Assembly (NCBI GenBank): GCA_045837725.1 | Contig: JBEWZL010000302.1 | Span: 248,001 to 312,000 of the forward strand | Origin: Vermamoeba vermiformis | Lineage: Eukaryota | Direction: 5' to 3' | Length of the DNA stretch: 64,000 bases | Notes under the pieces: model-generated | The model's database searches: none | Told to the model about the DNA's origin: nothing | The model's input: only the letters and a program-made list of their open reading frames with translations | Shown here: piece by piece, positions 20,649 to 64,000 of the stretch | How positions within the stretch are numbered: the first letter of the stretch is position 1 | Layout: each line of letters starts with the position of its first letter | Position numbers and translations under genes: made by a program

Positions 20649-22454
20649 TTATTTCTTGGGCTCTTGCAAGACACCAGTAAAGATCTTCTTGTCCTTATCG
20701 CGCTTCTCAGTGACAGACAAAAAGGCGGGCTTCAAACTGCCGTCCTTGCATTGAACGACAATATTACGACCGATACCAATGATTTTAGCCTCACCAGTCT
20801 TGTTGTAGTTCTCGAGGTACTTATTATGGGCCTAAAGAATCAAATAATAGATCAGCACTTGCTTTGGAGCTTCGTATCGCACAAAATAATAGAGCATACC
20901 TCTTTGTGCGGTGAAGGCATCAATGAAGAGACGTTCTTGCCAATAACCTCGACGAGTTTGTAGCCAAAGAAGTTCTCAGCGCTCTTGTTGAAGCAGTTAA
21001 TCAAGCCAGTCTCGTCAATGACCATTGCAGGCACTAATAACCCGTCCAAGACTTCACGTTCTTGTTGCAAGATGGATTTAGGAGCCACTGTTTCTTTGAC
21101 TTCCTTCAAAAATCCAACAAATAAGCGCATCTCGCCAACAACTTTTTCAGTGACTTCCAATCGGCAAGGAGCAATAGATCCGTCCTATATAAAGAATTGT
21201 TAATTATATGCACCCATATTTAAATCTCAATGAGTGGCTTACTTTGCGTTGGAATACGACATCGCGACCAGTTCCGATGACTTTGGCTTGGCCAGACTTA
21301 AGATAGCCTCGCAAGTAGTTGTCGTGATAAGACTTGTACTCGTCAGTCATCAGAATATTAACGTTACGGCCAACAATTTCTCTGCTTCTGAATCCAGTAA
21401 ACTTCTCGCCCGATTTGTTCAAATATTGAACGATACCCTTCTCGTTGATGACGGTAACAGCGTCGATAAGAGTGTCGAACAAAGAGAACATGAGAGATAG
21501 ATTGGCGTTGTTGGAAGTCGCTGCTTCGCTACGAGCACCACCTGCCGCATCTCCTTCTCGGCGCTCATAAACGAAGATTTTGAGCGTGCGAACACCGCTG
21601 GGCAATGATTTAATGGCTTCAGAGAGGTCCTCGTCGCGACTGATGGTTACTTCATCGCCATCGGAGTCCTTGTACTTCAAGCGGAATCGTTTCTTGCCGA
21701 ACATATTGCCGATCTCTTGGCTCAACTCTTCGAAGCGCATGCCAGCTTTGGCTTTGAGAGTACGAACTTCATCTCCGCACAATGCCTTAATGAGTACTTG
21801 GTCTGTTTAAAGGAGTACGTTAAGCAAGCGCCAAAAATAGCGGATTTACTAGATAAACTTTAACTTTTCGATTAAGGATTATGGAACCGTAAATTCAGCA
21901 CAACAATTTAATACAGATTTTATCCGATTTTAGTTTGTTTGAAAATCCACCTACCTTGGTCTAGGGAAGTATCCTCCGAGGTGTTTGTTTTTTCGGTACG
22001 AGCTCCGCCCTTCAATTCAGCAACTTTTTGCAAAATTCTCTTGCGTTGACCAACTTTCGTGATGCCCATATTCTTCAAGTCAACATCAGCCAGATCCAAC
22101 AACTCGCCACCAGAGATTTCGTTTTCAATGAACACTGCGCGAGCATCGGAGATGTCCAGAGTATCGAGCCAGTTAGCAACATCACCGACAGTCCATTGAC
22201 CGGGCTCTATTATTAATTGCACAATTTGTTAAAAATTTAAATTCATCAACGTGTCAACGTCCACTAGATTTGATTTTTTTCGACTGCAATGACAACTTAC
22301 CTTTGTTGCGGAGTGATTCCTTCTTTTCTGAAATACTCTCGCTGTTGTTGAGACTGCGCGAGCTTCCTTTAGGCACGACTTCAGGGGTTTTGGATGAGCT
22401 CTTGCTGGAGGACTTGCTGCTTGAAGTCTTGTCTTTCTTCTTGAATAGCGACAT
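20649..22454 (-). CDS. SAM-PB1-PAS-PAS protein, paralogue B (FixL-like heme PAS)
   Basis: Starts MSLFKKKDK. Same domain order and matching intron positions as paralogue A. PAS1 GRNVNILMTDEYKSYHDNYLRGYLKSGQAKVIGTGR; PAS2 [30 protein letters not shown]. Confidence 0.9.
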
Positions 22455-43289: not shown

Positions 43290-46117
43290 ATGGATCGACC
43301 GCGTGCGTACTCGATCGGCACTGGCGTTCCGCCTGAGCAACGCGACGATACTGACGAGCTGAAAATTGAAGCCAAAGAGCCCACACAAATATTAACAACT
43401 GCAATTATCACGGGAACCACCATCCGCCAAGAGGGCAAGCAACAGTTCACGGTAAGCATCCACGTCATTAATTAGAATTACAGCTCAGTTTGAAATTTTA
43501 AGCGATTAATTGGTTGCTATATTAATAGTAATTATAAATTGCACTTGAATATTGAACCGTTGTACAAATATCCATTTTTATTTCAGCAAATTTGCAATAT
43601 TTCTAGCTCGTTGGCCTAAGTATAAGCTCAAATAATTAAATATCATCTATGAAATCGCAAATACGCTCAGAAATTTGATTTATTTTTGTAATTTCCGTGG
43701 AGAATCATGAATTAAATTGAATCGACAAGCGAATAAATGGACTAATACGCCCCGCGCATATCACTCCTCGAACTTGACACTAATCACTGAATTATTCCCG
43801 CAGGAATATGAAATTCTCGTAACCGAAGACATCTCGTCGTGGATCATAAAACGCCGCTACAAGCAATTCTACAAGTTAAATGACTACGTAAGTGCATTGA
43901 ACAGCGTATATTCTTACCATAACCATCGTAGTTGAAAAGCACGTTCGGAGCACTGGTTCCAAAGAGCTTCCCTCCAAAACAGATCACGACGAACAAAAAT
44001 CAAGCGTTATCCCCACACGCAATTGATAGGAGGCATCAAATACTTCAAAATTGGTTGCAATTAGTATTGAACAATAGAGTTCTTGCCCAGGACGCGAAGC
44101 TACGTTTATTTTTGACGCAAGATCGAGTCCAAGTTGATTTCAGACCAGTGTAAGTATTCAATAATATGCTTATTATTCTGTGTACAATAATAACTCGTGA
44201 TGTAGTGTAAATAGAAATAGATCGCGATCAGATGCTAAATATCAGAGCGCGAATGACTACATGGGCTATTTATATCACTACAAAAAAGGTCATTGGAAGA
44301 AACGCTGGTTCATTTTGCGTCAAGGACTATTGTACAAATATGCCAATCCTAAAGACAAACATCCATATGGCTGGTATGACTTGAAGGACGCAAAGGCAGT
44401 CAGCATGTCGTTGCAACAAGTAGAACAGCTTAAAACTGTTGAACGAAGGATTAAACGACGTGATTGTAAGTGACACGTGTCAAATGGTGTCTCGTACTGA
44501 CTCGTTGACAGCTGGAAGGAAATCTCCCGAGTCATTGTCGCCTTCGTTGAACAATGACAGACGAGTCAACTTCAAAGTTAAAACCACAGAATCGACGGAC
44601 AAACTTACCTTGACGCCGGACACTGACGGACCTCTCTCAGAGCCCTTGGTAAGTAGCGTGCTGCATTTACTTTGAAATCTAACACCGGTACAGAGTCCAA
44701 AGAAAACTCGATCACCGTCCATTGAACGTCGAGGCTCACTTACTAAGGACAGAGGCGATTATGGCTTCAGTATCGAATGCGAGCAGTATCCTAAAATGGT
44801 AAGTGCCTATTGCGTGCAGAATTGTTGCTAATCATAGCACACAGATCTTCACAGCTGAAAGTGAAAATGAACGCGTCTGTTGGCTGGCAGCATTCAACAA
44901 ACCATCCGAGACCCAAATCACAGGCAGTCCAGGCACTATGTCACCGCGACCTCGTGCATCATCCTCACACGATGTGATGGCCAACCCGCGTGATTCATAC
45001 TCAAGTTCGATATTCGGAGTGCCGCTGGATCAAATAGACGAGATTGATATCGACGGTGTACCAGTGTTTATTTCAACTATTTTAGACTATATTGAAGCTA
45101 CGGCACTGCACAAAGAAGATCTGTTCACCTACTCGCCTGACGCCAACGTGAAAAAGCTGATTGAGAATCAAGGAGACCTAGATCTGACGGTCATTGACAG
45201 TCCACACGCTGTAGCAGGTCTCGTTATCGAATGGCTCGTAGATTTACCAACGCCCATTGTACCTGATGACTTTTATGACGCATTCTTTGGCGCATTCAGT
45301 AAGTAATACGAATTTGACATGAACTGGTGACTCATTCATTGTACTTAGAAATCGAATCCATTCAAGCACGACACGCAGTAGTGAGCACGATTATATCTCA
45401 ATTGCCAGAGATCAACCGCTGCTTGTTGTTCAAATTATTCCGCTTCTTGCACGTGGCCAGTACCAAAAAGCCTCTGCAGAAAGAAAGAGTTGTCAAACTG
45501 TTTGGCCGATTAGTATTCAGACCTCTGCCTGATCACGACAAGAACGGCTCAGTGTACCGCTTGACCTCTGAACTGATCGACTATTACACTCTGATTGAGG
45601 TACACTATCCAATTTGATATTCACGCAGAAACTAATAGCTATTCTGTTATAGCCACCCAGTACACCGCGTGACCCTCGAATTGAGCGCACAGATTCGTTC
45701 TACACTGGGCTGATATCCAAGTTGAAGACACTCGACCAGGGCAATCAAGGCAACATGATTGTCGAGCACGCTGATGAGGGCAGCAACGAAGAGGTGACCA
45801 TTGTGACGCAGGTCTCGTCCAATGATCGCGAGCGGTTCATTACTATTCAACACAAGAAGAGTCCGCGCGGTGAAGGACCAATCAGCGCGGTCAATTCGAT
45901 GCCCAAGATCACTGTCAAGAGCTCACCGACTATGAAATCTCCGCTGGAACTTGACGAACCATATGACGATGTGTCGAGCAGTGCTGAAGAGGCCTCTATT
46001 CGACAAGTGGCAGACAAGCAGCTGTTCGATGCTATTTTTGGCTTTGAGAGCGATGAGGGCAGTGATTTTGAAAGCGATGAAGCGCCGAAAGAGAGGCTCT
46101 CTAACAGCTTGCACTGA
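43290..46117 (+). CDS. PX, PH (split by an insertion) and RhoGAP-like protein
   Basis: PX YEILV...IKRRYKQFYKL...FPPK...LQNWLQLVL; PH GYLYHYKKGHWKKRWFIL...FTAESENERVCWLAAF; RhoGAP-like IFGVPL...PHAVAGLVIEWLVDLPTPIVP...LPEINRCLL. Confidence 0.85.
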
Positions 46118-46278
46118 AAACGTAACTTGTAATAAATATTTGTAATAAATAAGCAATAATACGGTGATCAAGAACACCCATGTTAGTGCCCGTACTCTCC
46201 TGTGATTGAAGTTCGGTGACATTTTTTCTGGTTCAACTTAACCGTATATTTTATTTTGTCTCCCAACAAGAGTGCATC

Positions 46279-49200
46279 ATGTCGACAGTGCAAAAGAAGA
46301 AGATCGATAATCGCATTCGCGTACTGCTTGAGAATGGCATCAAGCAGAACCATCGAAGCTTGTTTGTCATCGTTGGTGACAAAGGAAAAGATCAGGTATT
46401 TTATGCTCTAAATATTCCTAAAATAATCATCTAAGATCTATTAATGGGGGGTGTTTTTATGAAATGATGTTAACGACGATCTAATCTGCATCTTTTTTCT
46501 AGGTCGTAAACTTGCACTATATGCTTTCTAAGGCTATTGTAAAAGCAAGACCATCCGTATTATGGTGCTACAAAAAGGAATTAGGATTTTCTACGTAAGG
46601 AAAAGTTGAATCAGATTCGGATCTCACTTTTGGATCTCCGATCAGCTCTTCAAAATATTCTTTAACGCACAGATTAATTAATATTAAATTATCAGTCACC
46701 GAAAGAAGAGAATGAAGCAATTGAAGAAGCAGATTTCTCGCGGTGTCTACGATCCAAACCGAGACGATCCCTTTGAATTGTTTATTACCTCGACCAATAT
46801 TCGTTGGTGCTACTACAAAGAAAGTCACAAGATCTTAGGTAACACCTATGGCATGCTCGTTTTGCAGGTACGTCATTCGCGATCGAGTACTGGTTTGGAT
46901 CTGATCGCGTTACTCGTAGGACTTTGAAGCTATTACTCCGAATATTTTGGCACGAACTATTGAAACTGTTGAAGGTGGCGGCATTGTCATTTTGTTGCTC
47001 AAGACGATGACCTCGCTCAAACAGCTGTACACTTTGTCTATGGTACGCACACAACCTAAATATTCAAATACGTATTTGAATATATTTAACAATACTATTA
47101 ATAGGACGTACACAGCCGTTACCGCACTGAGTCTCATCAAGATGTCGTCTCACGCTTCAATGAGCGCTTCTTGTTGTCTTTGACGAACTGCTCGCAATCG
47201 CTGCTGATGGACGACGAGCTCAATATATTGCCCATCAGTGTGGCGAGCAGAACGATCACTGCATTGCCTCCTCGACCCGTACGGACATACAACAATACTG
47301 ATGATTATTTGCAACCATTGTAACCTTTGTTCTCCCTCAGGAAGGTGAATTGACCAAAGCAGAGCAAGAATTGAAGGACTTGAAGGCCTCATTGCGCGAC
47401 ACTGAGCCCATTGGTTCGATCATCGACAAGGCACGCACTCTCGATCAAGCCAAGGCTGTGTTGACATTCTACGAAGCTATTTCTGAGAAATCGCTGCGCA
47501 GTACTGTCGCTCTCACTGCCTCGCGTGGTCGTGGTAAATCAGCGGCATTAGGTCTCGCCATTGCTGCTGCTGTTGCCTTCGGGTACGTGGAGTGCATTTA
47601 ACGCGTCAAACTAACATTACTAATGCACCGATGTAGCTATTCAAATATCTTCGTCACTTCGCCCAACCCCGAGAACTTGAAGACGTTGTTCGACTTTATA
47701 TTCAAGGGCTTTGATGGTCTCGAGTACAAAGAACATCTCGACTACGAGATTGTGCAGTCCACCAATCAGGAGTTCAACAACTGCATTGTGCGCGTCAATG
47801 TGTTCAAGACTCATCGTCAGACCATTCAATACATCAACCCTGCTGACTATCAGAAATTGGGTCAAGCTGGTGAGTAGTACTATATGGCACATTTATTATC
47901 GAAGTCAGATATTAACCACTGTTACAGAACTGGTCGTAATTGACGAGGCTGCGGCTATTCCGTTGCCCATCGTGAAGAACTTGTTGGGTCCTTACCTCGT
48001 GTTCATGGCCTCAACTATCAATGGCTACGAAGGCACTGGTCGCTCGTTGTCTCTCAAGCTCATCAAACAGCTGCGCGAACAGAGCGGTACTTCTCAAGGC
48101 AATGCTGCCCTTGGTGGTATGTGACTGACCGCGTTGTTGTCGATACGTGCTAATTAACATAGGTCGCACTTTGCGTGAGATTCAACTGCAAGAGCCCATT
48201 AGATACGGCCAAGACGACGTGGTTGAGAAGTGGTTGAACGAGTTGTTGTGTCTCGATGCAACAGTCGCCAAGCCCATTGACAGCGGCTGTCCTCACCCCG
48301 ATCAATGCGAGTTGTTCTATGTCAATCGCGACACTCTCTTCTCGTACCACAAACTCAGCGAGAAGTTTTTGCAGCGCATGATGGCCCTCTACGTGTCAAG
48401 TCACTACAAGAACAGTCCCAACGACTTGATGCTCATGAGTGATGCCCCCGCACATCACTTGTTTGTCTTGTTGCCGCCAATCAACGAAGAGACCAAAGCT
48501 CTGCCTGAGATTTTGTGCGTGATCCAAGTCTGTCTCGAAGGTGAAATTTCGCGCGAATCAGTGGCCAAACAAGTCGGCAGAGGACAGCGTGCATCAGGTG
48601 ACTTGATCCCTTGGACTATTTCACAACAGTTCCAAGACGATGATTTCCCTAGCCTCTCAGGTGCTCGTGTTGTGCGCATTGCTACACACCCTGAATATCA
48701 CCGTGTAAGTCAAACTTATACCTGAATGTCATCAATAGCTAAGATCTAATGTCAGATGGGCTATGGTCGTCGTGCCTTGCAAATTCTTCAATCTTACTAC
48801 GAAGGAAAAATCACCAACTTGAGTGAAGTGAAAGCAGCTACTAAAGAAGAGTCTATTCACGTTGAGGTATGACATCTGTCATAATTTATATATATATATC
48901 ATGTGTTAATATTCGTGATCCTAGGACCCCGCCCCTTCAAGTTCAGTCCTGTTGCAAGAGACATTGAAGCCGCGCAAGAATCTCCCGCCTTTGTTCTCCA
49001 AGCTGAGTGAACGGGCCCCAGAGAAGTTACATTACTTGGGTGTGTCGTATGGCCTCACTAAAGATCTCTTTGGATTCTGGCAACGCGCGCAATACATCCC
49101 CGTGTACATTCGTCTCACACAGGTACGCAGCACTAACTGAGAGTCAATCAGATTCATTGCTAATCAGCGAACTTTAGAATGAATTGACAGGCGAACACAC

Positions 49201-50247
49201 CTGCATCATGTTGAAAGAGCTGAGACCTGAATATCAACTCGACACTGTGGCCAATCCCAAGTGGCTCGAATCATTCGCTGAAGGTAACTAAGCACCTGTT
49301 GTAAATGAAATATGCCCGTATTAATCATTGCATAGATTTCCGTCGCCGTTACATGTCCTTGTTGGGCTATGAATTGAAAGAGTTCTCGTGCGAGACTGCT
49401 TATCTAATCTTTGCATCAATTAAGCTCTCTTCGTCGTTCAATAAGCGTAAGTAATGAATCTCAAATGATACAGAACACTATACTTACGTTGTTATAATAG
49501 CACTTGATAGTCGTGAAGCCCTCAATGACTTGTTCACCGCACACGACATGAAACGTCTCGAAGGCTATGCACACAATTTGTTGGACTATCACGTGATCAT
49601 TGATCTCTTGCCCACGCTCTCGCGCATCTATTTCTCCGACAGATTGGCCTCGCGTAACGTTAAATTGGCTCCTTCGCAAGAGGCAATTTTGTTGGGCTTG
49701 GGCTTGCAACACAAGAACATTGACCAACTCGCTGTAAGTCACTGGCCCCTATTGTATGTAGCGCAGCTGTTCATTGATTGTATTACAGAAAGAGTTGTCG
49801 CTCGAGCCCAATCAAGTGATGGCATTCTTCAACAAGGTCGTGCGAAAATTGAGCAAAGTGTTCCGTGAGATGGAAGAGGCTGACGAGGCCAAAGCCTTGC
49901 CCGAAGCCTATCGCGCCAAAGATGTGGAGATGCATCCTGTTGAGAACACGCTCGAAGAGGACCTCACCGCTGCAGGCAACAAGGCCTCAGACCAGCTCAA
50001 CAAGAAGCACAAGGACTTGTTGCAGAACCTCTCTTTGCCCGACTACGCCATTGTTGGGGATGAGAATGCGTGGCGCGAGAGCACTGCGGCCATCAGCAAG
50101 GGCAAGATCCCCAACATTGTCAGCGTGAAAAAATTAAAGCGCAAACTCGGTGATGACGACGGACCTCTGGCATTCAGCAAACACAACGACGAAGACGAGA
50201 CTGAGCGCAAGATGAAGAAGATCAAGAAGAAAAAATTGAGAAATTAA
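46279..50247 (+). CDS. NAT10: RNA cytidine acetyltransferase NAT10/Kre33
   Basis: KKIDNRIRVLLENG...HRSLFVIVGD, LTASRGRGKSAALG, IDEAAAIP, STINGYEGTGRSL, SSHYKNSPNDL, GARVVRIATHP...GYG. Confidence 0.97.
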
Positions 50248-50275
50248 GACTGTCCCACCGCTAATAAACAGCATG

Positions 50276-52865
50276 TTATTTTAAAATCGAGTACAAGATG
50301 AATGCAGTGAACAGCGCGCGATCACGATCAAAGTGCCCGCCCTCGAATGTCTTCAACAGAATGTCGCGCTGTCGCTCTGGTGGCATCACATGTCTTAATT
50401 TGGCAATAAACTTGACTGGTTCCCAATACTGCACACGTGGATCATTCATGCCAGTGGTCACCAGACAGTTCGGATAGGCACGGCCAGGTGTCAAATTGTA
50501 CATCGGGCAGTAGCGCGACATAAATGCAAAGTCTTCAGGTCTGGTGGCATCACCCCACTCATCGACCTCGTAATCGCGCCACGGCACTGACTTGTCCGCC
50601 ATCGACACCAACACGTCCACAAAGGGCACTTCTGCGATCACTGCGCGGAACAATTCAGGCTGCAAGACAGCCGCGGCAGTGACCAATAGCCCGCCAGCAC
50701 TGCGTCCTCTGATCGCGAGTTGTTCCGCACTCGTGTAGCCGCGCTCAATCAGGGCCCGAGCACACGCGATCAGATCTTCAATGCTGCGCTGCTTCTGCGC
50801 TGCCTTGCCGGCAATGTGCCACCATCGACCACGCTCGGTACCACCACGCACCTGTCAACTATTCAATATCCTATTTTGGAGTACTGTCACTACTCACGTG
50901 CGGGATGGCGTAAATTATTCCGCGATTGAGCAGACTGAGTCGATACAACGAGAATCGCGGCTCTTTGCTGGCACCGTACGCACCATATCCGGACATGAGC
51001 ATCGGACTGGGCTCCGAACTGCGCAGGTCTTTGCGGTACACGAGGGAGATGGGCACTTGACACGTGTCATCCAGTGACGGCACAAACAGCCGTTCAGTGC
51101 AGTACTGTCCCGCGTCGTAGCCCATCACGTGCTGCTGTCGCACCAGGGTCAGAGCCCGTTCAGTGAAATGATAGGCGTAGAGTGACTTGGGCGTCGTGAG
51201 TGACGTGTACGAGAGGTACAGCACGTGACTGTGCGCGGATTGGTGGCACTTGTCGCGATATACCCACGTGTAGTTGTCATCGATGTTGCCTGGTGCGCAG
51301 CTGTACACTGTTTCACTGAACGGCACGTAGTGACAGTTGTCGGTGAGAGTTATTCCGCTCTCATCACGTGATGGATCGATATCCACAACGCGAATCTGTT
51401 TCGTGCAGTTCGAGTGTTGTTCGTATACCACAATCTGCGCTATAATTAGGACTGGAAGTGCATTACCAAATATAGAAATACCTGTGAGTCAAACGCGTCC
51501 AAATTAAGCAAATAAATGTCGTTGTTATGTGGCAGCACCAATTGCCATTTTTGGAAGTCCGATGCGTGCTCAACAGCCACTCTCCATATTTGGAAATTCT
51601 CCGCCTCTTTGTTGCAGCCGATGTAAAAATAGCCCTGGTGGTGATCGATGAAGTACATCACGTGATCAGCACGTGGTTGCAGCAGGGTGAACTCACTCGC
51701 AGTGTGCGCGGAGGTGAAGCGAATCTCATTTGCAGACGAGGAGTGTGCGACTAAAAATAGATACTGCTGATCGGTGCTCGCGTCGAGTGACAGCACAAAC
51801 CTGTCGTCGTGCTCTTCGTACAGCAACACGTCATCCGCTGTGTGACACGTGTCAGTGGAGGGGCATGTCTATTTATAGTAACGTACCGTGCGGGTCTGTC
51901 ACGTGACTGCGATAACAGCGTGTGGCGTGCAGGCCAGTCACGTGACTCGTGTACAACAGGTGCTGACTGTCACGTGACCAGCGCATCGCTTGAAATGCCT
52001 CCATGCTGCCCACGTGATTAATCTCGCGCGGGAGATCGCAGCCCTGGTCGATGTCTCGCACGCGCACGGTGTAGTCCTCATTGCCGTGCTGATCGGTGCC
52101 CCACGCCACGTAGCGGTGATCGGGACTGATCTCAAACATGACCACGTCACGTGATGGCAACACGGTGCACGGATTGACACCTGTCAACTGCCAGTCTGCA
52201 CCGCTTGGTGTGCTGCGAATAATTCCGTTCTCGGTCCACGTGTACAACCAGGGACCAAGCTGCACGAATTAGCCATGTATGGCAAGTGTTACTATATTTA
52301 GCACTCACGCGCCAAGTACCACGTGACATGTCACTGCCGCGCTCAATCTGCTCGAATTCTTGCAACGCTTGACTCTGTGTGCAATGTCAGCGATCAGTGC
52401 ACTCTAATACTATGAGATATGTGGTCTATTGACTATTGTTTTATTGACTATTACGGTATTGACTATTGTGTATCTACAGTGTCATAATAGCACTCTATTG
52501 TGTGACCTACATGATAGTGCTGCAGACGCGGAGAATGCACCTGTTGTTCAGTCCAGCTGGTCTCTGCGGCAATGTACTGCTGCACTGCGGGATCTGAACG
52601 AGTGTCATCGCGCAGCCAATAATAGGGGTCAGTGATAGTGTGCAGCGGTGTTATATGCAGTTGTTTGTCTATGCGCGCGGCTGTGGGGTATTCTGAAATT
52701 ATTAGGAGGATAATTAGCAACTAGTATCACATAATTATAATTATCTGGTGCCTGCAAGCATGCACAATTAGCGTTGTTAATTATAATTAATATTCGCTGT
52801 CACTGGCATTGAGATCCGCTTCATATGCGGCTCTTTGACGCACCTGTCTTGTCTGCGGTCTGCAT
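50276..52865 (-). CDS. Oligopeptidase B / prolyl oligopeptidase family S9A
   Basis: DPYYWLRDD, GYGAYG, HVRGGTERGRRW-type segment, catalytic GRSAGG, NDPRVQYWEP, GGH. Confidence 0.92.
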
Positions 52866-52986
52866 TGCGTGCACTAGGTCCGATGAGTGAATTAATAGCA
52901 ATTCTTGCGATCGTACGAGTACATTATCACTTCTCTTGTGTATCTAGTCGTCACCGTAATTTATTTTCAGTGAAATTCAAACACAT

Positions 52987-54496
52987 CTAGTTGATCTGAT
53001 TGAGCGCGTGAGCCAAGTCACCAATCAAGTCCTCCACATCTTCCAGACCCACCGAGAGACGCACCAAGTTGTCGCTGATGCCCAGCTTAGCGCGCTCCTC
53101 GACAGGCACCGAGGCGTGTGTCATGATGACGGGGTGATCCACCAGCGACTCCACGCCACCGAGCGACTCAGCCAGTGCGAACAGGTGCACATTTTCCAAG
53201 AACTGACGCGCTTGTGTGATGCCGCCCTTCAAGAAGAAGGTGATCATACCGCCATAGCCCTTCATCTGCGCCTTGGCAATCTCGTGCTGCGGATGTGACT
53301 CGAGCCCCGGGTACAAGACACGCTCGACCTTGGGGTGTGCGGTGAGCCAGTGCGCAATCTTGGTGGCACTCTTCTCGTGCTCGCGCATGCGCACGTGCAG
53401 GGTCTTGGTGCCGCGCAACACGAGGAAGGAGTCGAAGGGCGAGGGGATGGCCCCGACTGCATTCTGAATGAACTTGAGCTTGCGATAGATCTCCTGGTCC
53501 CTGCCACACACCACACCCATCACCACATCGCTGTGGCCGTTGATGTACTTGGTGCACGAGTGCATCACCATGTCCGCACCGAGATCCAGCGGGTTCTGGA
53601 AGTAGGGCGACATGAAGGTGTTGTCCACCACGAACATCAGCTGCTTGCGGCGTGCGATGGCAGCCACCTTGCGAATGTCCACAATCTTCAACAGCGGATT
53701 GGTCGGTGTCTCGAGCCACAACAGCTTGGTGGCGGGGGTGATGGCGGCTTCGAGTGCAGATTCATTGTTGAAGTCCACAAAGCTGAATGAGAGGCCTTGC
53801 AGCTGATTGACGCGCGTGAAGAGACGTCGAGTGCCACCATAGAGATCGTCCATGGCCACCACGTGATCGCCGCTCTGCAACAGCGTCATGATGCCGTTAG
53901 TGGTGCTCAGACCAGATGCGAAGACAACACCTGCATATAGCGTTAGAATAGGACGATAAATGGTAGTGCCTATTATTGTAGTGTACCCCATTCAGCATTC
54001 TCAAGCGCTGCCAAGTTGTGTTCAAGTGCATCTCGGGTAGGATTGCCAGTACGAGCGTATTCATAGCCCTTAATAATCCATCGGTATTAATACTACGTGC
54101 ATATTAATAGTATGAATTGCATACGCGATGAACACCCGGAGATTGTTGTTGAAAGGTCGTAGACAAACTGATCGGAATGATGACCGCACCTGTTGCGTGT
54201 CATTGTTAATTATATTATAAATTTCATGGATAGGAGCACGTATGATAAGTATATAATACATCTATTATCCGCGCATCAATTCATGGTGTAATAATTTTTA
54301 ATTACCGGAGCTTGGATCTGCGACTTGTCCGGCGTGAATGGCCTTGGTACCAAAGCCTTGCTCTCTCTTCTTAGCCTATATAACTTGATTATTATTATTG
54401 TCGCAAAGCGGAGCGAACGAGTGAACTTACAGAGATCTGGATCTGTTCCAATACTTGCAGTTGCTGTGTGGCGGTCTTAGTGCTCTCCATATTCAT
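52987..54496 (-). CDS. CTH: Cystathionine gamma-lyase (Cys/Met PLP-dependent enzyme)
   Basis: GFGTKAIHAGQ, YEYARTGNPTR, DDLYGGT, LETPTNPLL, VDNTFMSP, PLP lysine in HSCTKYINGHSDV, AESLGGVESL. Confidence 0.93.
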
Positions 54497-54828
54497 AGCC
54501 CTGATTATTATGACTGATTAGGACTGATCACTCGTGCTGTGTTAATCAGGTCGAATAAATCTTCTGTTTTTCAGCCGAAACTTCTCGAGCCACGCGCCTG
54601 TCAATCAACGCACTAGTGATGCAATAATACAGTACAATCACTCGATTATGCATCGTGGTGAGTAATAGTGGTGCGTGATTGCTCATTTGGGCTGATACAG
54701 CTCTAACTATGATGATTACTATGTTACTTCATAGCTTCCGCCTTCAATGCACCTTTTAAATGCAGCTAGTTACATATGCATGTGTTTAGTATTCTACGAC
54801 CGAGTGCCGCGATCACATGCAGCGCGAG

Positions 54829-54850
54829 ACACGTGACAAAATCACGTGAC
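54829..54850. promoter_or_regulatory. Tandem CACGTG E-boxes (ACACGTGAC and TCACGTGAC) in the divergent CTH/HTT intergenic region
   Basis: Two CACGTG at 54830 and 54843 in AT-rich non-coding DNA between divergent starts. Function is inferred only. Confidence 0.35.
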
Positions 54851-55202
54851 AGATTTTCTTACCAGATCTGACACCAACGATAAAGATTTTCAACCTCAGA
54901 ATAAAGCACACATAATACATGTGCTGTTGTATGAATGTATTTATTGCCGATTGAATAAGACAAGTACGTGCGTGAATTAACCTTCAAATTGACTGTGACT
55001 CATTTCATACGCACAAACTAATTAATAACAATTATTGTAATATATTACACTGCAATACTCGTATTTTAGTGCGCAATACTGCGCAGTACGCGATAAAGAA
55101 TATTAATAATAATTATTTTTCGTTGTTAGCGCGCGTGTATTATGAACACCCATTGAACAGCGGACATTAAGAAGACTTTAATATATAAGCCATACATCAC
55201 AC

Positions 55203-58200
55203 ATGGATCTACTCAAAGCGTTAGATGTGCTCTCGACTGCACCGCTGAAGACCGAGTCAGAAGCAGATCGACAAGTCAAGTTGAAAGCACTGCGCACCAT
55301 CGACGAACAGCTCAGCTCCCCTGCACTGCGCGGCACGGCTGATTTCCCGCGCCTGCTCGCCTTCAGCTTGCACAGTCTGCTGCGACTGTTGGGTGACAGC
55401 GACATGAATGTGTGGTCCCTCGCTGAAGAGGTGCTGCACAAGGTCGTCAAGGGCCTCATACGCACACACCACGACTGGATCATCGTCGAGCTCTACAAGG
55501 GACTCAAGGGACAGCGATTTGCAGGCAGAAGTCAGCGCGTGTCACTGGCCCTGCTCGGTCACGTGATTGGCTGGACCTCGCGCTCGCGTCTGAAGAAGTT
55601 GACAGCCGCGATACCGAAGCTGATTGGTCAACTGATCAGCACTGCGCAACAGGACAGCTTGCTCATCGAGGCACTCGCACTGCACTTCGAGCCCATCATG
55701 CGGCACGTGGCACCCTACATCACTGGCACGCAGGTGCTGACCCTGGTCGATCACTGCGTGCTGGCCCTGGTCGACACACAGGGAGCAGTGCGCAGATCAG
55801 GGGCCGGACTGATCACCACGCTGTGTCGGTACTGGCCCTCGCCCGCACTCTTCTATCACGTGTTTGGCACGCTGCGTCAACTGCTGCAGGTATGGCCGTC
55901 TCTTTTGACACTTGTGACAGGTGTGAAATATTTGGTTACTGACACGTGTCATTTTTGCAGCGCACCGACCAGAGCAGCGAGCACGACATACACACGATGC
56001 AGGGTGTGCTGCACTGTTACTTGCGTCTGATTCGCTTGCACCTCGAACAACCGCGGCACACTGCGGAATATCTCCTGCCCGAGATACAGTTCATCGCCTC
56101 CCTCGCCACAGATTCACTGAAACACACGGACAGCAATGTGGTAGTGTCAGCCCTCGAATTGTTGCAAGAACTGCTGTCCTCATTCCTGCACGTGCTGATA
56201 CACGTGTGGACACCAGAGCGCGCACGTGATCGCTTCAAAGCCCTGCTCGACCAGTTCGAAGTGATGCTGTTCGAAGACAGTGCCGTGCGCATCTCCAGCC
56301 AGTCCCTCATCGTGGCGTGTGTGGCGCACATCTTCGAGCACTACTGGATTGACTACGCGCACCTGTCACGTGATCACAGCACTGCACCGAGCACCGTCGT
56401 CACATTTGAGCCGCTGAGCATGTTCCTCGAGTCCAAGCTCGCCAAGTGGTCCTCGCTGCTGGCACACTCTGATCCGCAGCTGCGCGGTCAGGCTGCGCTG
56501 TTCGTCGCCGCCACGCAGAGTGCTGTGCTCGTCAATCCACGTGCTCCACCAGGGCCCGAACCCCTCGGAGCCTGGGCCGCGCAACCACTGCTGCAGCTGA
56601 TCCTGGACGACGAGTCCTCGGTGGCAGCCAAGTGGGGTGGTCAGGCCCTGGCACGACTCTGGCCCGCACTCGTCTCGCACGCCCCGCCTGCCCTGCCCCT
56701 CAGTGTACTCGCGCGCATATTGGCTGTCAAATCTGACGCCTATCTGCTCGTCAAGATCAAGGTAACTTGCACTGATTGCCTTATTTGGTAACTCACACTT
56801 CGCTGCAGGTGCTCAGTTTTCTGTCGCGCGTAGATTTCCGTGTGATTGCAGCCCTGGAAGAGAAAATTCGACACGGCAATCACGTGACTCAAATTGGCGA
56901 TCTGGTACGGCACTTGCCTAATCGGGTTAATGCGTATGTTGACATCTTTGCAGTCCATCAACCGGGGCACAGATCTGCAAAAGACAGCCCTGGACGTCAT
57001 CTTGCAATATCTCGATGACGCAGATCACCGTGTCCGACGAAGAGCTGCAAAGACATTGGTCAAAATATTGCCGCAATTACACGCCGCACCATATTTGGAA
57101 GGTGCGCAGAGTCGATTGCAGGCCCATGCCGTGGTGCTGGCGGAATATCTCCACGGTGCCCCCAAATCTCAGAGCGACAAGCTGAATTACCTTTTATGGC
57201 GCATCGAATCGAGTCTGAATGCGCGCGAGAGTCAGCAGATCAAAGGCGTGTACGAGTGGTGTGCACTGCTGTCGCTGCAGGGTCACGTGATCCCCGCGCA
57301 GTTCATTCCGATCATGCTCGAACACCTCTCTGCCACCAATCTCGCCACGCATCTCGAGACACAACTGCACGCCCTCACGGTCATGGAGCACATGGTCGGA
57401 GAATTGACCGGAGAATTAGCGCCGTACAGCGTGAAGATCTTGACGCACGTGCTCAAAGTGCTGGCAATCACCACGTACATCACGCAGAACAAGAGCGCGA
57501 GTCAGGTGCGCGAGATGAAGAGTGCCGAGGGACTGGCCACACCGCTGCTCGGCGAGGCGATCTATTTGGCACTCTGGGACCGACTCCGCGACACGCATCG
57601 ACTGGCACAGGCGAGCTTCACGGCCAATCTGTTCGATCAGATCCGCTGTCAAGCACTGCTGGCACTCGGCGCGACAGTGCACGTGCTGGGCAAGAATGCC
57701 GTGCCGTACTGCGAGGAGCTGTTGCTGCACTTGCCCGCGCACCTCGACGAGTACCCCTTGGTAAGCGCGCACGTGATGGTGTGCTGAACGTGTCTAACTG
57801 TCATTGCCTAATTAGGAAGTACTCACGTGCGTGCGCGAGCTGTTCGTGTGCGTGTTTCATCCGCAGAACATCAGCAACACCATCCCCCAGGGCAACAGTT
57901 CGCCCAATGCCAGCACCACCCCGCGGCGCAAGAAACCTGCCAAATTAGGACTGCACGAGAAGTTGTTCCACCCGGAGTTGTTCCGCCGCAGTGTGAAAAA
58001 GAATTTGAACTACGCGACCCTGGACATCAACAGCGAAGAGGAGTGGGTGCTGAATGCCAGCACTATAAATAGCACCACCAAGAGCAGTGCCACCGCTAAA
58101 AATACGCTCAAAATGTTCGAGCCACTCGTCACGCTGGCCCTGGCACGCTACCACAACAGTCAGAATCACGTGCTCAAGAATGCCGTGCTGGCACTCTTGG

Positions 58201-61200
58201 TGGCATTCTTGCACCTGGGCGTGGATTTCTGGGCCCTGGACCGCGAGAACAAACTGCTCAAAGAAGTGCTGCTCGATTTGGAACAGGCACGTGATCAGCC
58301 TGTCAGTGTCGAGCTGCGCGATCTGAGCGAGGAAGTGACACGTGTCAATCGCGTGCCTCAACCAGCCACGTGCGTGTTGCCGCAAGTGCGACTGATGCAC
58401 GTGCTGCTGATCACGCTGCTGCACCCCTCGCGTCGCCAGCACACCACAGCCACCGTGCAGCAGTTGGTGGCACTGCTGGCACCTGTCCCGCAAGCAGCGG
58501 TGAAGAGTCCGATCATGAAACAGCCGTTAATGAATCTGTTTGCCACCAAGCCTGCCCTGCCCTCACCCTCGCAGAGCTGGGAGGAACTCAAGCTATTTTT
58601 AGCTCTGCTTGGCGACCTCTTGCTCGATCACGTGCGCGTGTACTTGCCAAATAAGGAAATGCACTCGGTAATCAACAGCATTCTCCGCACGCTGTTCACT
58701 GTCACGCTGGCCGAGGACGATGAAGACTGGCACCGCGATCTCCGCGCGAGATTGATCAATCTGTTCACTGAATTGCTCGCCACGGACCCTTCCGAGCACG
58801 TGATCGACCATCTCCGATTTGTGCTGCAACTCACCAAGGACAAGCACGAGCTGCACCTCACGTACGACACGATATTTGCCTTATTTGGTAATAACACATT
58901 GTATTCAGGGTGTCCAAGCAGATTGCCGATGCGCTGCTAAAATTAGCCACAGACAACACCGAGTCCCTCACACAGCTCGCAGATGTGACAGCACTGTACC
59001 CACTCATCGACCAATTACCTAAAGCGGCAATTGATGTCAGCAAACTGCTCACGAGTCTATTTTTAGCCAACTTGCCCACTAAACTCCGAGCCTATGAGCT
59101 CGACACGGAGATTGAGCGCGCCAATGACAAGCTGTTCAGTGAATTGCCTCCGCTGAACTTGCCAGTGCCAGCTGTCAACTTGTCAACGGTGACAGCAGTG
59201 ACACCTGTCACACCCGTGGACATCAGTGCGGCACTCGTCGAGACATATGTCAGCGAGGACAAGAACACTACGCCACAGGGATCACCAAATAAGGAAGGTG
59301 CGGGATTACTCAGTCCGAGCACGCCTCTCGAGGCCTCGGAGATCTCCCGAGATATACAATCTCCCGAACCTGCAAATGAAGCGAAACAAAAGTCACGTGA
59401 TCATCAACATCACTCGTACGAGAAGAGCGCAGAATTGTTGGCACAGTGCCACCACACGTCACGACTGCTGACACGCCGCACTCGCCTCTGCTGGATTTAT
59501 TCCGCTCTCGTGGTACGTTGTCTTTGTAATTATTTCTCCCTGTTCGGTACTGACCAATGTTCGACAGTTGTTCCGCTTGACAGCAAAGCACGAAGTACGC
59601 GAATTGACATCAGTGACAGCTGCCCTGGCCAAACAATTGTCCCGCACACTCGATCTCGCTGAATTGTGTCACGTGCTCCTCTTGGAGTCCGCACAATTGC
59701 TGGCACTCTACTCGCACGACAGCACGAGCACACGTGCGGTGAATCTATTTTTAGAACAAGTGACGCGACTGATCGATCGCAGCAAACAGTCGAGCAGTCA
59801 GTTGTTGCTCGATATGGGCTCTGATTCGCAGCTGCACCTCCTCGTGCGCGCACTTCTCGACCAGGGCTCGTCACGTGATCGTCACGTGCTCACCAATCTC
59901 ATCGAGCACGCACACCTGTCCACCACTGGTCTGTTGCTCGCGCAGTTGTTGCTAAATTTGGAAGCATACGACGTACTGCGCTATCTGTTCGATCACGTGC
60001 GCAATAAGTAAGTGACCAAATATGGCAATAGTGCGGTACTAACTCTTTAAATAGAACGCGTGTCACGTGGCACTCAGAGCTGTTGCAAACATTGCTGTTC
60101 TTGTACCAGTGCAAGTTGATCGTTCATGAACGCTATCACCCGGACAAGATGCGCGCCATGATCGATCAGCTCGTCAACAACGAACCATATTTGGAAGCAC
60201 TGGCACACAACATGCACGAAGAGGTCGTGTTGCAATTGGTGCAATCTTTCACGCAACCCACGTGGCACGACAAGCTGATCTCATTCGTGAACAATCACGT
60301 GTCAGGTGCCGAATTGAGTGCTGTCACGTGCCACCATCTGCTCTTGCTGCTCATCTCAGTGCCACCAAAAGAGCATTCTTTGCGCGTATGTGCTGTTGAC
60401 ATGTTGACAGCTGTCATTCTGACAACTCCGATTTGACAGGTGGTGTTCAAAGTGTTCATGCGACACAGTCACGTGTCAGTGAAGATTGCAGCGGAGAATT
60501 ACATCGTGTCGATGCTGAACGAATTCCACATTGACAAGGTACGCACTCGATGCGCAACTGCAATGACTAACCAGTGGCAGAATGACGCCAGTGTCACGGA
60601 CTCGATGATCAAGCTGCTCATTGACGAGTACCGCGCGCAGCTGCGACCCTCTTTTGTGGTAAGTGATATTCAGCTGCCAGTGTGCATTGCCTAATTTGGA
60701 CAGAATCGCCTCAAAGCCTTCCACTGGCTGCAAATGGAAACTCCCGCGCTGAGCCGCACAGCCGAGATCATCAACCAGGGCCTGGCACAGACCAACACGA
60801 GTGCAACGACTGAACTGCTGATCAATTTCGATGAGTTCGATCACGTGCCTGCGGAGAAAGCTCCGACACCTGTCAAACTAGCGGAACAATCGGAGCTGAT
60901 TCCGACTGACATGAATGCCTTTATTGGCAATTATCTCGCGCGCCAGTTGCCGCACCACGTGAGCAATGCGAAGATGATTCAGTGGTTGACAGCTGTCATG
61001 CACGTGGACAGTCACGTGTTCGAAATCATGCTCAACTGCAAACATTGCAAGTTGAGTCACGTGACCTACTGCTTTCAGCTCAACACTTGTGAGCACGTCA
61101 AACCTCATCTGCTCAGCTTCCTAAAAAGGAAAAACAAAGAATTGCTGGACGAGCGTAGTCACGTGACTGACTGGTCTGAACTCGTGGACTTGACACGTGC

Positions 61201-64000
61201 CACCATGCTGGCAATTGAACGCTGGGGCGAAGAAGCACTCGAGGCCCTGGTTGAGTCACCCGCATTGCCTATTTTGGTAAGAATTGCGTTCTGCCCTTGA
61301 AAGCTCTAACTTCCAAATTAGGTGCAAACATGGCTGACACGCATCACCAAGCTGCTGACACGTGCTCAACACGTGACACCGACCTCCACCGTCACTGTCA
61401 TGCACGTGCTGCGATTGGCTGCGTCTATTTTTAAACGCTCCTTATTTGGCATTGACGAGAAGTTCCACGTCACGCGACTCAGTATTTCCGTGCCATCTCC
61501 GCAGGGAGATACACCGCTCCCTGACAGTGCGACTAATAATAGCACTGACTCGCACGATGTGTCACGTGCTTTGAATGAATTCTTCGTGCAGTTGATGAAT
61601 GTAAGTGACATTGCCTAATTTAGTCTGTTCTGATCACGTGACAGCTGTACTACACGGTGTTCCATCCCAATCGGTCAATGCCGGTCAAAATCACTGACAG
61701 CACTCCCGTTGTAAGTCTATGATCTATTTTTAGCTCTCTAATCCCTCGCAGACCACTGCCGATACCTTGCTTATTTTGGAATTCTTCTGGAGATTGCTGC
61801 GTGATCCAACCAAGTCCATATTTGGCTCGCTGGCACTCAAGTTCAAATACTGCCACGAGCTATTTTTAGCGCTCTTGAAAGAAATTGCTGTCAAATTTGA
61901 CATCCCCGACCACGTGCCCAGTGCACCCTCGCCCGAAGATCTCGATGCCCAAAATAGTCCACCCGATCCTCGATTGCCGCACAACAGGACACCATTTCCT
62001 TTTCAGGTGCTGGAGATCAATTTTGACCACAACGACGACCCCGTCACCACTTTGACACATTTCGTGCGCCTGATCAACACGCTCAAGATCTGTCACCCAC
62101 GTGTCGTTAACCAATTATGGCAACAGCTGTACCAAGTCTTTGCGGAGAAAGAAGAGAACAGCCAGGGCTCATTTGCCACGTCACAACAGCTCAAAGCCCT
62201 CGCCGTGCAGGGACTCGCCTCGCTGCTGCTGCGCGTACGTGCTGCTAAAAATAGCGCGGTGTTCAGTGAACTAACTCCCACTGCAGATCAGCTACAATTG
62301 GATCCTGCCCGCACCTGAAGAGGAGGTGGATCCGAGTCTAAATTTAGGACTTGCCAAATTAAGAGAAATCTATCCGCTCGGTCGACTGACAGTGCCACAA
62401 CTGCGCCAGTCCAAGCTGTACCAGTGGCACTCAGTGGACATCTCGCTGCTGATTGAAGATCTGCTCATGCTCTGCAAACATCACGTGGACAGCTATCTCG
62501 CGCACACCACGCCACACCTCACGCTGCACCGCGCAGTCATCAAGGCCGTGCTGCTGCTCTCCGATCTCTTCACGCGCCAGCAGTACCTCTGGATGCAGCA
62601 GATGTTCGAGCGCATCTACTACGCGGGACTGCCGCTGGATCCGACTGCGCGCACCAAAGACGACACCGATCACGTGCTCGCTGATGACTTCCTCGTCGAT
62701 CAGTACGTGCTCATTGGACTCTGCAAGGTACCGCGACACTGCTGCTATTTTTAGACTCTAATCTCACGCAATCTTCACAGGCTGCTGCTGTCTTGGAATT
62801 GCCTAATTCGGCAACTCAGATCACCAGTCCAAATAAGGACAACAAAGAGCCACCTGGACCTGTCCTGACGCCCAATCTCGTGCGCAGAATGTCTATCACC
62901 TTTTTAGGCAATAACACCAACGCACCCAACTTGAATCTAAATAAGGAAGGTTTGGTGTCTGGAGTAGTTCCCTGGGGTCTAAAATTAGCTGCGCTGCACG
63001 GTCTGAACTTTGCATTCCAAGGCTATTCCTATTTAGTAAGTGCACTCGCCCAAATCGAGTAAATATTTAATGCTCAATTCCAATTATAGAAAGTGACCAG
63101 TGTGCCACCAAGTGTCATGGCCCTGATTGACAGTCTCGCACAAGAGACGATCGATCACTACGTGGACGACAACAATCGTGTGCCGTCACTGCTTAAAATG
63201 GAGCAGCATCATCTGACGCTGTTCATGAACCGCCTCAATCTGTCCGTCATCTCCGCCAACAAATCACGTGATTTGCGCGACAGCTCTTCGTCGAGTGGCA
63301 GTGCCGCCAATTCTCCCGCGTCCGTGCACAGCAACCGAAAACTCGATCTAGAGTACGTATTTGCAGCTATTTTTAGCACCACTAACCTGTGCGATCAGTG
63401 CCGATGAAGAGATGATGAATATGGAAGTTGTCAAAACAATGTTTGCAAAGATTCGCACCAACAAAAATGTCACCAAAAATGCACTGTCCAATGCCGCAGT
63501 AGAGGAACTTGCCAAGTAAGGCAATCATGTCTATAAGTAGCACGGTGTCTAATTGCTGTCTAGGATTCAATTGCCAAATCTGTTATTGCAGAAATTCAGC
63601 AGTGATCAGATCATGTCGCTGGTGCTCGCAGAATTCTCCAAGCCGATCGACACCAATCTCCGGCTGGTGGCACTCGTGCTGTTCAAAGTCTTCAAAGCAC
63701 TGCGCAAGAGAAAAGAGCAGGCCGTGGTCGTGCGCTGGGTCGTCATGTGCATGGGAAATTTCACGCAACTCTCGACCTTCTCGAACAAGTCCGCACAGGC
63801 CCTGTGGTCCCTGCTCGTGGTGATGCTGGCGGCGTCACGTGATCGCTTGTGGTCAGCCCTGGTGTGGGGACTGCTCGCGGACGATGATTGGCTCAACACA
63901 GATCTCGCACTCTTGCCCGTCGCCCTCGCTGACTTTGTGGCGCGTCAAGAGCTCGAAGCCAGCACGCGTCAACTGTTCCTCGATGCCCTCAAAGATCTGC
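55203..64000 (+). CDS. HTT: Huntingtin homologue (HEAT repeats), runs off the window end
   Basis: N17-like MDLLKALDVLS; GDSDMNVWSLAEEVLHKVVKGL...IVELYK; HTDSNVVVSALELLQ; HSDPQLRG; LDDADHRVRRRAA; FEPLVTLALARY; DQIMSLVLAEF. These match segments I recognise from huntingtin. Confidence 0.88.

Follow-up and report, generated by a model that had tools for sequence, protein, structure and literature searches.

A sharply bounded, CACGTG-saturated block overprinted on three adjacent genes of Vermamoeba vermiformis

What could fill one block of a eukaryotic chromosome, exons included, with copies of a single short palindrome and leave the neighbouring DNA ordinary? The question arises from a 64,000-nt stretch of Vermamoeba vermiformis (contig JBEWZL010000302.1 of assembly GCA_045837725.1, forward-strand positions 248,001 to 312,000), hereafter the window, in which a first-pass annotation made from the letters alone had noticed that the hexamer CACGTG becomes abruptly common near 50.4 kb. 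All positions given here are those of the window. We refer to 50,401-64,000 (13.6 kb) as the zone, whose right-hand limit lies beyond the window, and to 1-50,400 as the flank. The zone carries genes for oligopeptidase B (OpdB), cystathionine gamma-lyase (CTH) and a huntingtin-like protein, and the flank ends with NAT10, which encodes an RNA cytidine acetyltransferase.

Exact counting placed 72 of the 90 CACGTG hexamers of the window in the zone (5.3 per kb) and 18 in the flank. The earlier hand counts of ~16, ~17 and ~50 had come close to the exact values of 18 (1-50,400), 17 (50.4-52.4 kb) and 51 (55.2-64 kb), and the extended palindromes GTCACGTGAC and GACACGTGTC, which occur five and four times in the zone, were found where that annotation had put them. 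Dinucleotide-preserving shuffles yielded an expectation of 8.2 copies for the zone (500 shuffles; standard deviation 3.0, maximum 19) and of 11 for the flank (200 shuffles; maximum 20). CACGTG, with a z of 22, was the sole GC-containing hexamer to stand out in the zone; the other hexamers above expectation there, palindromic ones included, were AT-rich intron words. The tetramer ACGT lay inside CACGTG in 72 of 97 instances in the zone versus 18 of 164 in the flank. A likelihood analysis set the change point for CACGTG at 50,400 (support 49,450-50,850; log-likelihood ratio 70.8), and the overprint starts within ~1 kb of the boundary between NAT10 and OpdB. As a control, we used 80 CTH loci from other organisms, obtained by scanning metagenomes with the CTH of a relative at 72% identity (P0170; best match 68% identity, none of this lineage); none of these exceeded 1.3 CACGTG per kb, and the median was 0. 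A metagenome scan with an OpdB exon alignment returned 83 pattern matches, none of which was confirmed. These data confirm the observation of a CACGTG-saturated region as real.

The pressure behind the sites acts on the DNA and not on the protein. Among the 67 that fall in open reading frames (ORFs) of at least 90 aa, 35 are read as His-Val (CAC GTG), 23 as x-Arg-x (nCA CGT Gnn) and 9 as Thr-Cys/Trp (nnC ACG TGn). The 2,669 nt of introns and spacers, some of which may conceal small exons, contain seven sites where 0.84 were expected (~8-fold), including those in introns at 51,846, 55,943 and 57,770 and in a spacer at 54,830 and 54,843. Coding DNA holds ~65 of the 72 and is roughly 9-fold enriched, about the same as non-coding DNA. 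Three unrelated neighbouring genes, all with introns and not all transcribed in one direction, thus carry the overprint, and so do their introns and spacers.

To quantify how far the encoded peptides constrain the motif, we defined contexts as the peptides able to encode the hexamer, namely His-Val (HV), [SPTA]R[VADEG] and xT[CW]. CACGTG was realised in 65 of 76 contexts in the zone (86%), comprising 37/40 HV, 20/26 [SPTA]R[VADEG] and 8/10 xT[CW]. The corresponding totals were 1/7 for NAT10 (1/2, 0/4 and 0/1) and 6/42 for 19 other flank ORFs (2/8, 2/28 and 2/6). With 7 of 49 compatible contexts written as CACGTG in the flank, the motif is not spread window-wide. Codon usage alone predicts 55-67% of the zone HV dipeptides as CACGTG and, by our estimate, a few per cent of the Arg contexts; the latter require one particular codon of four to six at each of two residues, and still 20 of the 26 carry the site. 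The contexts themselves are also 2.6 times as frequent in the zone (76 in 3,586 codons, 2.1%) as in the flank (49 in 6,025, 0.8%). His-Val alone occurs 30 times in the huntingtin-like protein versus 8.3 expected (3.6-fold), and 28 of these 30 are written CACGTG where codon usage would give 55%.

Shuffles of the individual genes led to the same picture. With protein and codon usage retained (synonymous shuffle), OpdB was expected to carry 5.9 sites (maximum 11) and the huntingtin-like gene 17.5 (maximum 26), and with codon order randomized 1.7 and 5.5; the observed numbers were 16 and 47. Because the counts exceed both expectations, codon choice and amino-acid order are both bent toward CACGTG. 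The enrichment thus survives the dinucleotide, synonymous and codon-order shuffles, the kind of codon- and dinucleotide-preserving nulls by which the first-pass annotation had proposed to judge it. Its claim of a regional DNA-level signal overprinted on unrelated genes held in all frames, in introns, in both orientations and in the 65 of 76 contexts, as did its statement that the codon usage of one gene is not enough. The description of the CTH coding region as poor in sites stands for the count, which is two (synonymous shuffle 1.3, codon-order shuffle 0.8). CTH is not spared, however: its protein offers few opportunities, and CACGTG encodes each of the two His-Val dipeptides that it has. Since CTH realises 2/2, the whole block is affected, and the density in each gene tracks what its protein allows.

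The proteins of the zone are altered accordingly, with an excess of His-Val, Ser-Arg-Asp and Thr-Trp/Cys. Compared with distant OpdB homologues, NYTYVY has become NYTWVY and QQKIQGY or QQEVLGGY has become QQHVMGY, and the site in DDTCQV comes with one extra residue. Footprints of transposon excision, or 6-nt insertions, were rejected as an origin, given that most sites are substitutions relative to distant homologues. Splice signals account for parts of four sites only: a donor (CAC/GTGAGT) at 50,895, a branch-point CTGAC beside ACGTG at 51,846 and 55,943, and, in the flank, a site beside a donor at 44,474. The last three are intron sites of the form TGACACGTGTCA; two of them abut a CTGAC branch-point-like element ~20 nt before the acceptor, and the third follows the donor GTAAGT.

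Close relatives appear to share the overprint. The full-length OpdB of relative P0160 (83% identity) has all 20 contexts of the window's OpdB and two more of its own, where ~13 of 20 would be expected to be shared if context residues had evolved like the rest. This protein contains nine His-Val dipeptides versus 1.9 expected; the figure for Vermamoeba NAT10 is 1 versus 1.3. A huntingtin exon of relative P0314 (91% identity) keeps 8 of 8 peptide footprints, and OpdB homologues at 46% identity or less are without them. CTH of the relative at 72% identity reads His-Ile at the two places where the window's CTH has HV. Judged by these peptide footprints, the form in which it is known there, the overprint is probably common to close relatives and maintained.

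Recognition extends beyond the six core bases. When the zone sites were symmetrised, 45% of half-sites had T at position -1, compared with a background of 24%, and 76% had a purine at -2, which gives the consensus RTCACGTGAY; the most frequent octamer, at 18 of the 72 sites, is TCACGTGA. Thirty of the 72 sites extend to 8-nt palindromes, 12 to 10 nt and 8 to 12 nt. The base before an in-frame site falls on a synonymous third codon position, so the preference for T there cannot arise at the level of the protein: 22 of 36 such sites have T, against a third-position background of 16.6% (p = 2e-9), and two-fold Y-ending codons preceding sites end in T 19 times and in C twice, compared with 324:530 overall (p = 9e-7). 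Such a graded flank preference is as would be expected from the binding energy of a dimeric DNA-binding protein. Neighbouring sites also tend to lie 11-13 nt apart, with six pairs versus 1.05 expected (P = 0.0008 for a distance window picked post hoc) and none at 6-10 or 14-21 nt. The pattern of the densest cluster, a triplet of GTCACGTGAC decamers (Table 1), matched once in the window and never in 100 shuffles. RTCACGTGAY is what bHLH-ZIP proteins of the USF, TFE and Cbf1 type prefer, including the CLEAR element GTCACGTGAC of TFE and the CDEI element RTCACRTG of yeast Cbf1. Recognition by a bHLH or Cbf1-like protein, as suggested in the first-pass annotation, is plausible by this analogy; a Pfam scan of 40 window ORFs found no bHLH domain.

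The join between flank and zone is sound. A contig of run X1 crosses it (48,937-50,830) with 0 differences; this run may be the source sample and is therefore not independent. Short error-free pieces from both sides were present at similar low depth in metagenome data from an aquifer, and transcripts from both sides, at ~98-99% identity, were contained in an RNA run labelled as a different organism; the runs in which both sides occur are X5 and X7. Introns on both sides are short and of the GT..AG type (48-62 nt, with one of 116 nt, from RNA contigs and reads). The NAT10 exon, OpdB and CTH proteins of relatives are recorded on contigs equal in size (478,508, 465,277 and 8,143 nt), and these equal sizes indicate that the adjacency of the three genes is old. 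The spanning contig, the two further runs, the common intron type and the synteny in relatives rule out an assembly chimera or foreign DNA, and the chimeric join near 50.3 kb that had been raised at first reading was not borne out. The sites themselves are not a base-calling artefact, because an independent metagenome contig (58,356-58,699) matches with 0 differences across three of them; RNA contigs cover others. We likewise discarded a giant-virus or phage origin: the genes have spliceosomal introns, and among the 62 loci on viral contigs with three TCACGTGA in ~90 nt, none had flanks that were saturated as well. The highest density there, 2.6 per kb, belonged to a tandem repeat.

Two observations on these runs stand apart. 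Summed contig k-mer depth of X1 over 44,001-64,000 was ~470 in the flank and 310-385 over most zone contigs, and the zone is split into more contigs, whose loose ends adjoin several sites; the drop could reflect GC bias, allelic divergence or a property of the zone. RNA reads of run X21, filed under the species name given to the probable source, show just 90-95% identity to the window, and this label spans quite divergent strains or species.

The boundary also marks a change in composition, mostly in third codon positions. GC content rises from 44% in the flank to 52% in the zone, and that of third codon positions (GC3) from ~0.48 in flank ORFs to 0.6-0.76; within NAT10, GC3 climbs from 0.39-0.52 at the 5' end to 0.70 in the last exon, beside the join. 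Val is written GTG in 27% of cases in the flank and in 177 of 263 (~67%) in the zone, where His is CAC in 85%, and AGA/AGG make up 28% and 8% of Arg codons in flank and zone. Introns hardly follow (GC 0.36 in NAT10, 0.39 in the zone), nor does the remaining DNA (zone spacers 0.38; outside ORFs 0.36 versus 0.385). GC3 fails to predict the motif, as flank ORFs with GC3 of 0.59-0.69 are without sites. CpG is undepleted, at observed/expected ratios of 1.04 and 1.01 on the two sides, which excludes decay of methylated CpG. The local mutational bias offered in the first-pass annotation therefore needs qualifying: the jump exists, but it lies in GC3 and hardly in introns, and CpG is undepleted on both sides. 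Expression level was rejected as the cause of the codon shift, since OpdB has less RNA coverage than NAT10 and yet a higher GC3. According to the accessible part of the published V. vermiformis genome account, GC3 ranges from 0.23 to 0.80 and the authors invoke regional mutational bias (PMC11702301); that part does not mention CACGTG. Set against this range, the flank resembles an average part of the genome and the zone a GC3-rich minority, and with introns and spacers barely shifting, regional mutational bias may be an incomplete account of the Vermamoeba GC3 spread. Among tetramers, CATG (observed/expected 0.57 and 0.43) and CTAG (0.58 and 0.31) are under-represented and GATC (1.38 and 1.75) is over-represented on both sides.

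Our preferred explanation, to which we assign a probability of roughly 0.4, is a sequence-specific fixation bias that acts site by site through a dimeric CACGTG-binding protein and would make the overprint comparable in kind to the cyanobacterial palindrome HIP1 discussed below. Each site would be favoured singly and not through a collective function, by gene conversion or mismatch repair whose outcome would be set by a dimeric protein bound to (R)TCACGTGA(Y). In one version, bound sites would be shielded from breaks, so that unbound alleles would be converted to bound ones. The drive would be confined to this chromosomal domain, the one with GC-rich third codon positions. A per-site force is favoured because saturation reaches 86% at a cost in amino acids, and a bias in repair or transmission is preferred because a small benefit split over 72 sites is not expected to hold each of them. 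The stronger proposal of a selfish, protein-binding-dependent conversion drive that operates in defined amoeba domains, writes TCACGTGA wherever selection tolerates it and so rewrites proteins is tentative, and we consider it doubtful.

Several points weigh against a fixation bias of this kind. The recombination, conversion or repair bias that the drive would require is deduced from the saturation, and the zone seen is a single one of 13.6 kb. Conservation in relatives concerns peptide footprints and not DNA. The nearly constant GC of introns and spacers (0.36 versus 0.39) does not bear out ordinary GC-biased conversion, so that some other cause may underlie the codon shift. Near-miss words give no simple pattern and no interpretable direction: AACGTG is low in the zone alone (0.10) and CAGGTG is raised (2.47). 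Finally, functional cooperative binding would explain the pairs at 11-13 nt and the graded flanks no less well.

This last point leads to the closest competitor, a selected array of binding sites in which a bHLH-ZIP-type dimer coats the domain and confers a silencing barrier, a replication or pairing behaviour or a centromere-proximal identity. It would account for RTCACGTGAY being imposed even on synonymous bases, for the six pairs at about one helical turn, for the sharp boundary, for footprints conserved in relatives and for the two tandem copies in the CTH-huntingtin promoter region. However, coding exons of expressed genes, an unusual place for such factors to act, hold ~65 of the 72 sites; 86% saturation with costly amino-acid changes demands strong selection on every site; and these are ordinary genes, expressed and with synteny in relatives, which sets them apart from DNA known to be centromeric or heterochromatic. 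We regard such an array as possible but would not bet on it. The protein could instead be an enzyme, with a methyltransferase and mismatch repair driving the word in the manner of HIP1 or of very-short-patch repair in E. coli and with enzyme access setting the limit of the zone. A short palindrome with a central CpG resembles type II methyltransferase sites, and the deamination product CATGTG/CACATG is depleted in the zone (observed/expected 0.29). That product is equally low in the unsaturated flank (0.32), though, CATG is low throughout, and CpG is nowhere depleted; moreover, very-short-patch repair covers the central position and not the other five to seven, and the graded flanks do not resemble the all-or-none recognition of an enzyme. 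The precedent is that HIP1, in the accessible portions of the reports, is conserved beyond expectation and recognised by two methyltransferases (PMC4390886, PMC13756078, PMC5861425). In the literature we searched, methylation in Vermamoeba came up only in a passage on giant-virus-like adenine methyltransferases. On balance we find a methylation drive improbable.

Two further explanations carry less weight still. Self-complementary CACGUG, or RUCACGUGAY, could act in RNA by binding a protein or by pairing, and so fold or cluster mRNAs. Most sites are exonic, the GC shift is likewise confined to exons, and a palindrome reaches the mRNA whichever strand is transcribed. Against this, three neighbours in both orientations are hit and ~15 flank genes are not, which points to chromosome position, and the intron and spacer sites listed above are enriched as well; a role in RNA is thus very improbable. 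Least credible of all, to the point that we give it almost no weight, is a by-product of composition, of codon or dipeptide usage, or of an artefact or foreign segment. The preference for CAC and GTG does raise the expectation, and the synonymous-shuffle means amount to about one third of the observed counts. But the enrichment outlasts all three shuffles, the 28 of 30 huntingtin His-Val dipeptides exceed the 55% expected, the T flank opposes the codon bias and flank ORFs with GC3 up to 0.69 are siteless, while an artefact is contradicted by the spanned join, the presence of both sides in an independent metagenome and RNA run, the uniform introns and the syntenic relatives.

Known systems resemble the zone in part. 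The E-boxes of bHLH-ZIP proteins (Cbf1/CDEI, USF, TFE/MITF CLEAR) share the CACGTG core, T at -1 and A at +1, the form GTCACGTGAC and pairs at one helical turn. They are, however, sparse and located in promoters or point centromeres, whereas here a stretch of 13.6 kb or more carries 5.3 per kb, with nine-tenths in exons where they dictate amino acids rather than in promoters. The Drosophila MSL recognition elements and the pairing-centre motifs of C. elegans likewise distribute a protein-binding word over a chromosomal territory that includes gene bodies, but they are modest, mostly non-coding or repeat-borne, and show neither synonymous saturation nor reshaped proteins. Isochores and GC-biased gene conversion offer a parallel for the abrupt GC3 shift between neighbours and the gradient across the boundary gene; here, intron and spacer GC barely shifts and one specific octamer carries the effect, something that plain GC-biased conversion leaves unexplained.

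The nearest likeness is to HIP1 (GCGATCGC), which is also a short palindrome over-represented many-fold in all frames and in non-coding DNA, overrides codon and amino-acid choice and has an unsettled function. HIP1 is kept at orthologous positions in relatives, and the peptide footprints suggest as much here. The Vermamoeba case differs in belonging to a eukaryote with spliceosomal introns, in forming a sharply bounded block where HIP1 is genome-wide, and in being an E-box word with graded flank preference and without a known methyltransferase. To our knowledge, hyper-abundant palindromes of this type have had no agreed cause for about three decades. A HIP1-type cause is hard to settle partly since whole genomes are filled, which leaves no internal control. 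The window has one built in, as saturated and unsaturated DNA of one organism, syntenic in relatives, are separated by just 30 nt between two genes. Were the conversion drive real, the zone would amount to a counterpart of HIP1 in a eukaryote, limited to one domain, and a comparison of saturated with unsaturated neighbours could reveal its cause. A DNA-level force strong enough to alter amino acids bears on how selection is read in these proteins, and the overprint is relevant to explaining the unusual GC3 spread of Vermamoeba. Over-representation is ~9-fold here and 15- to 300-fold for HIP1 in the accessible text of PMC5861425. In the literature we searched, we found no description of CACGTG in Vermamoeba or of its over-representation in amoebae or in eukaryotic coding regions.

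The genes and features on the two sides of the boundary are collected in Table 1. Exons of NAT10 match the EukProt Vermamoeba vermiformis protein P0306 at 92-100% identity per exon (tblastn); this protein clusters with the NAT10 exon of the window at 90% identity. The gene has a single CACGTG (49,590), in one of its seven possible contexts, and GT..AG introns of 55-62 nt (RNA contigs). Its stop codon and that of OpdB lie ~30 nt apart, which implies overlapping or extremely short 3' untranslated regions; no tandem repeat was found at this junction, and no tRNA genes were found. OpdB carries 17 CACGTG, 16 of them coding, with 16 of 20 possible contexts realised. CTH, whose nearest named relatives are Amoebozoa, has four introns in RNA reads, and its RNA coverage stops near 54,541. 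Both of its sites are in the main exon, and His-Val at these two positions is common in the family and hence ancestral. The huntingtin-like gene contains 51 CACGTG, 47 of them in the modelled coding sequence; its exons follow an approximate splice model, two joints of which differ from the RNA evidence without materially affecting the counts.

Table 1. Coordinates of genes and features at the flank-zone boundary (window positions)
Feature	Position	Strand	Description
NAT10 (RNA cytidine acetyltransferase)	46,324-50,247	+	Pfam NAT10_TcmA_helicase, GNAT_acetyltr_2, tRNA_bind_2; last gene of the ordinary flank
NAT10/OpdB junction	50,248-50,278		~30 nt between convergent 3' ends; change point falls here
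Oligopeptidase B (OpdB)	50,279-52,693	-	Pfam Peptidase_S9, Peptidase_S9_N; tblastn with relative P0160; at least 6 exons mapped
Saturated zone	50,401-64,000		72 CACGTG, consensus RTCACGTGAY, 6 pairs spaced 11-13 nt
Densest cluster	51,899-51,977		three GTCACGTGAC decamers in 79 nt of OpdB coding sequence (peptides SHV, SHV, SRD)
Cystathionine gamma-lyase (CTH)	~52,990-54,500	-	Pfam Cys_Met_Meta_PP, E 4e-134; highly expressed; GC3 0.76
Two CACGTGACA copies, 13 nt apart	54,830-54,848		divergent CTH-huntingtin intergenic region, outside all exons
Huntingtin-like gene	55,182 to beyond 64,000	+	Pfam Htt_N-HEAT_1, Htt_N-HEAT, Htt_C-HEAT; at least 15 exons

The tandem CACGTGACA-AAAT-CACGTGACA in the divergent promoter region of CTH may be an ordinary regulatory E-box pair, and 54,830 and 54,843, the only two in a promoter-like spacer, are the likeliest of all the sites to be promoter E-boxes of the usual kind. 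The octamer TCACGTGA is also the Cbf1-Met4 element of yeast sulfur-amino-acid genes. Further genes of the flank include those for a capping enzyme and adenylate kinase and for LRR, SAM-PB1-PAS, RhoGAP, LIM and RRM proteins. The opposite-strand PB1-PAS modules at 18,635-19,600 and 21,207-21,806, one with an N-terminal SAM domain, look like a local duplication.

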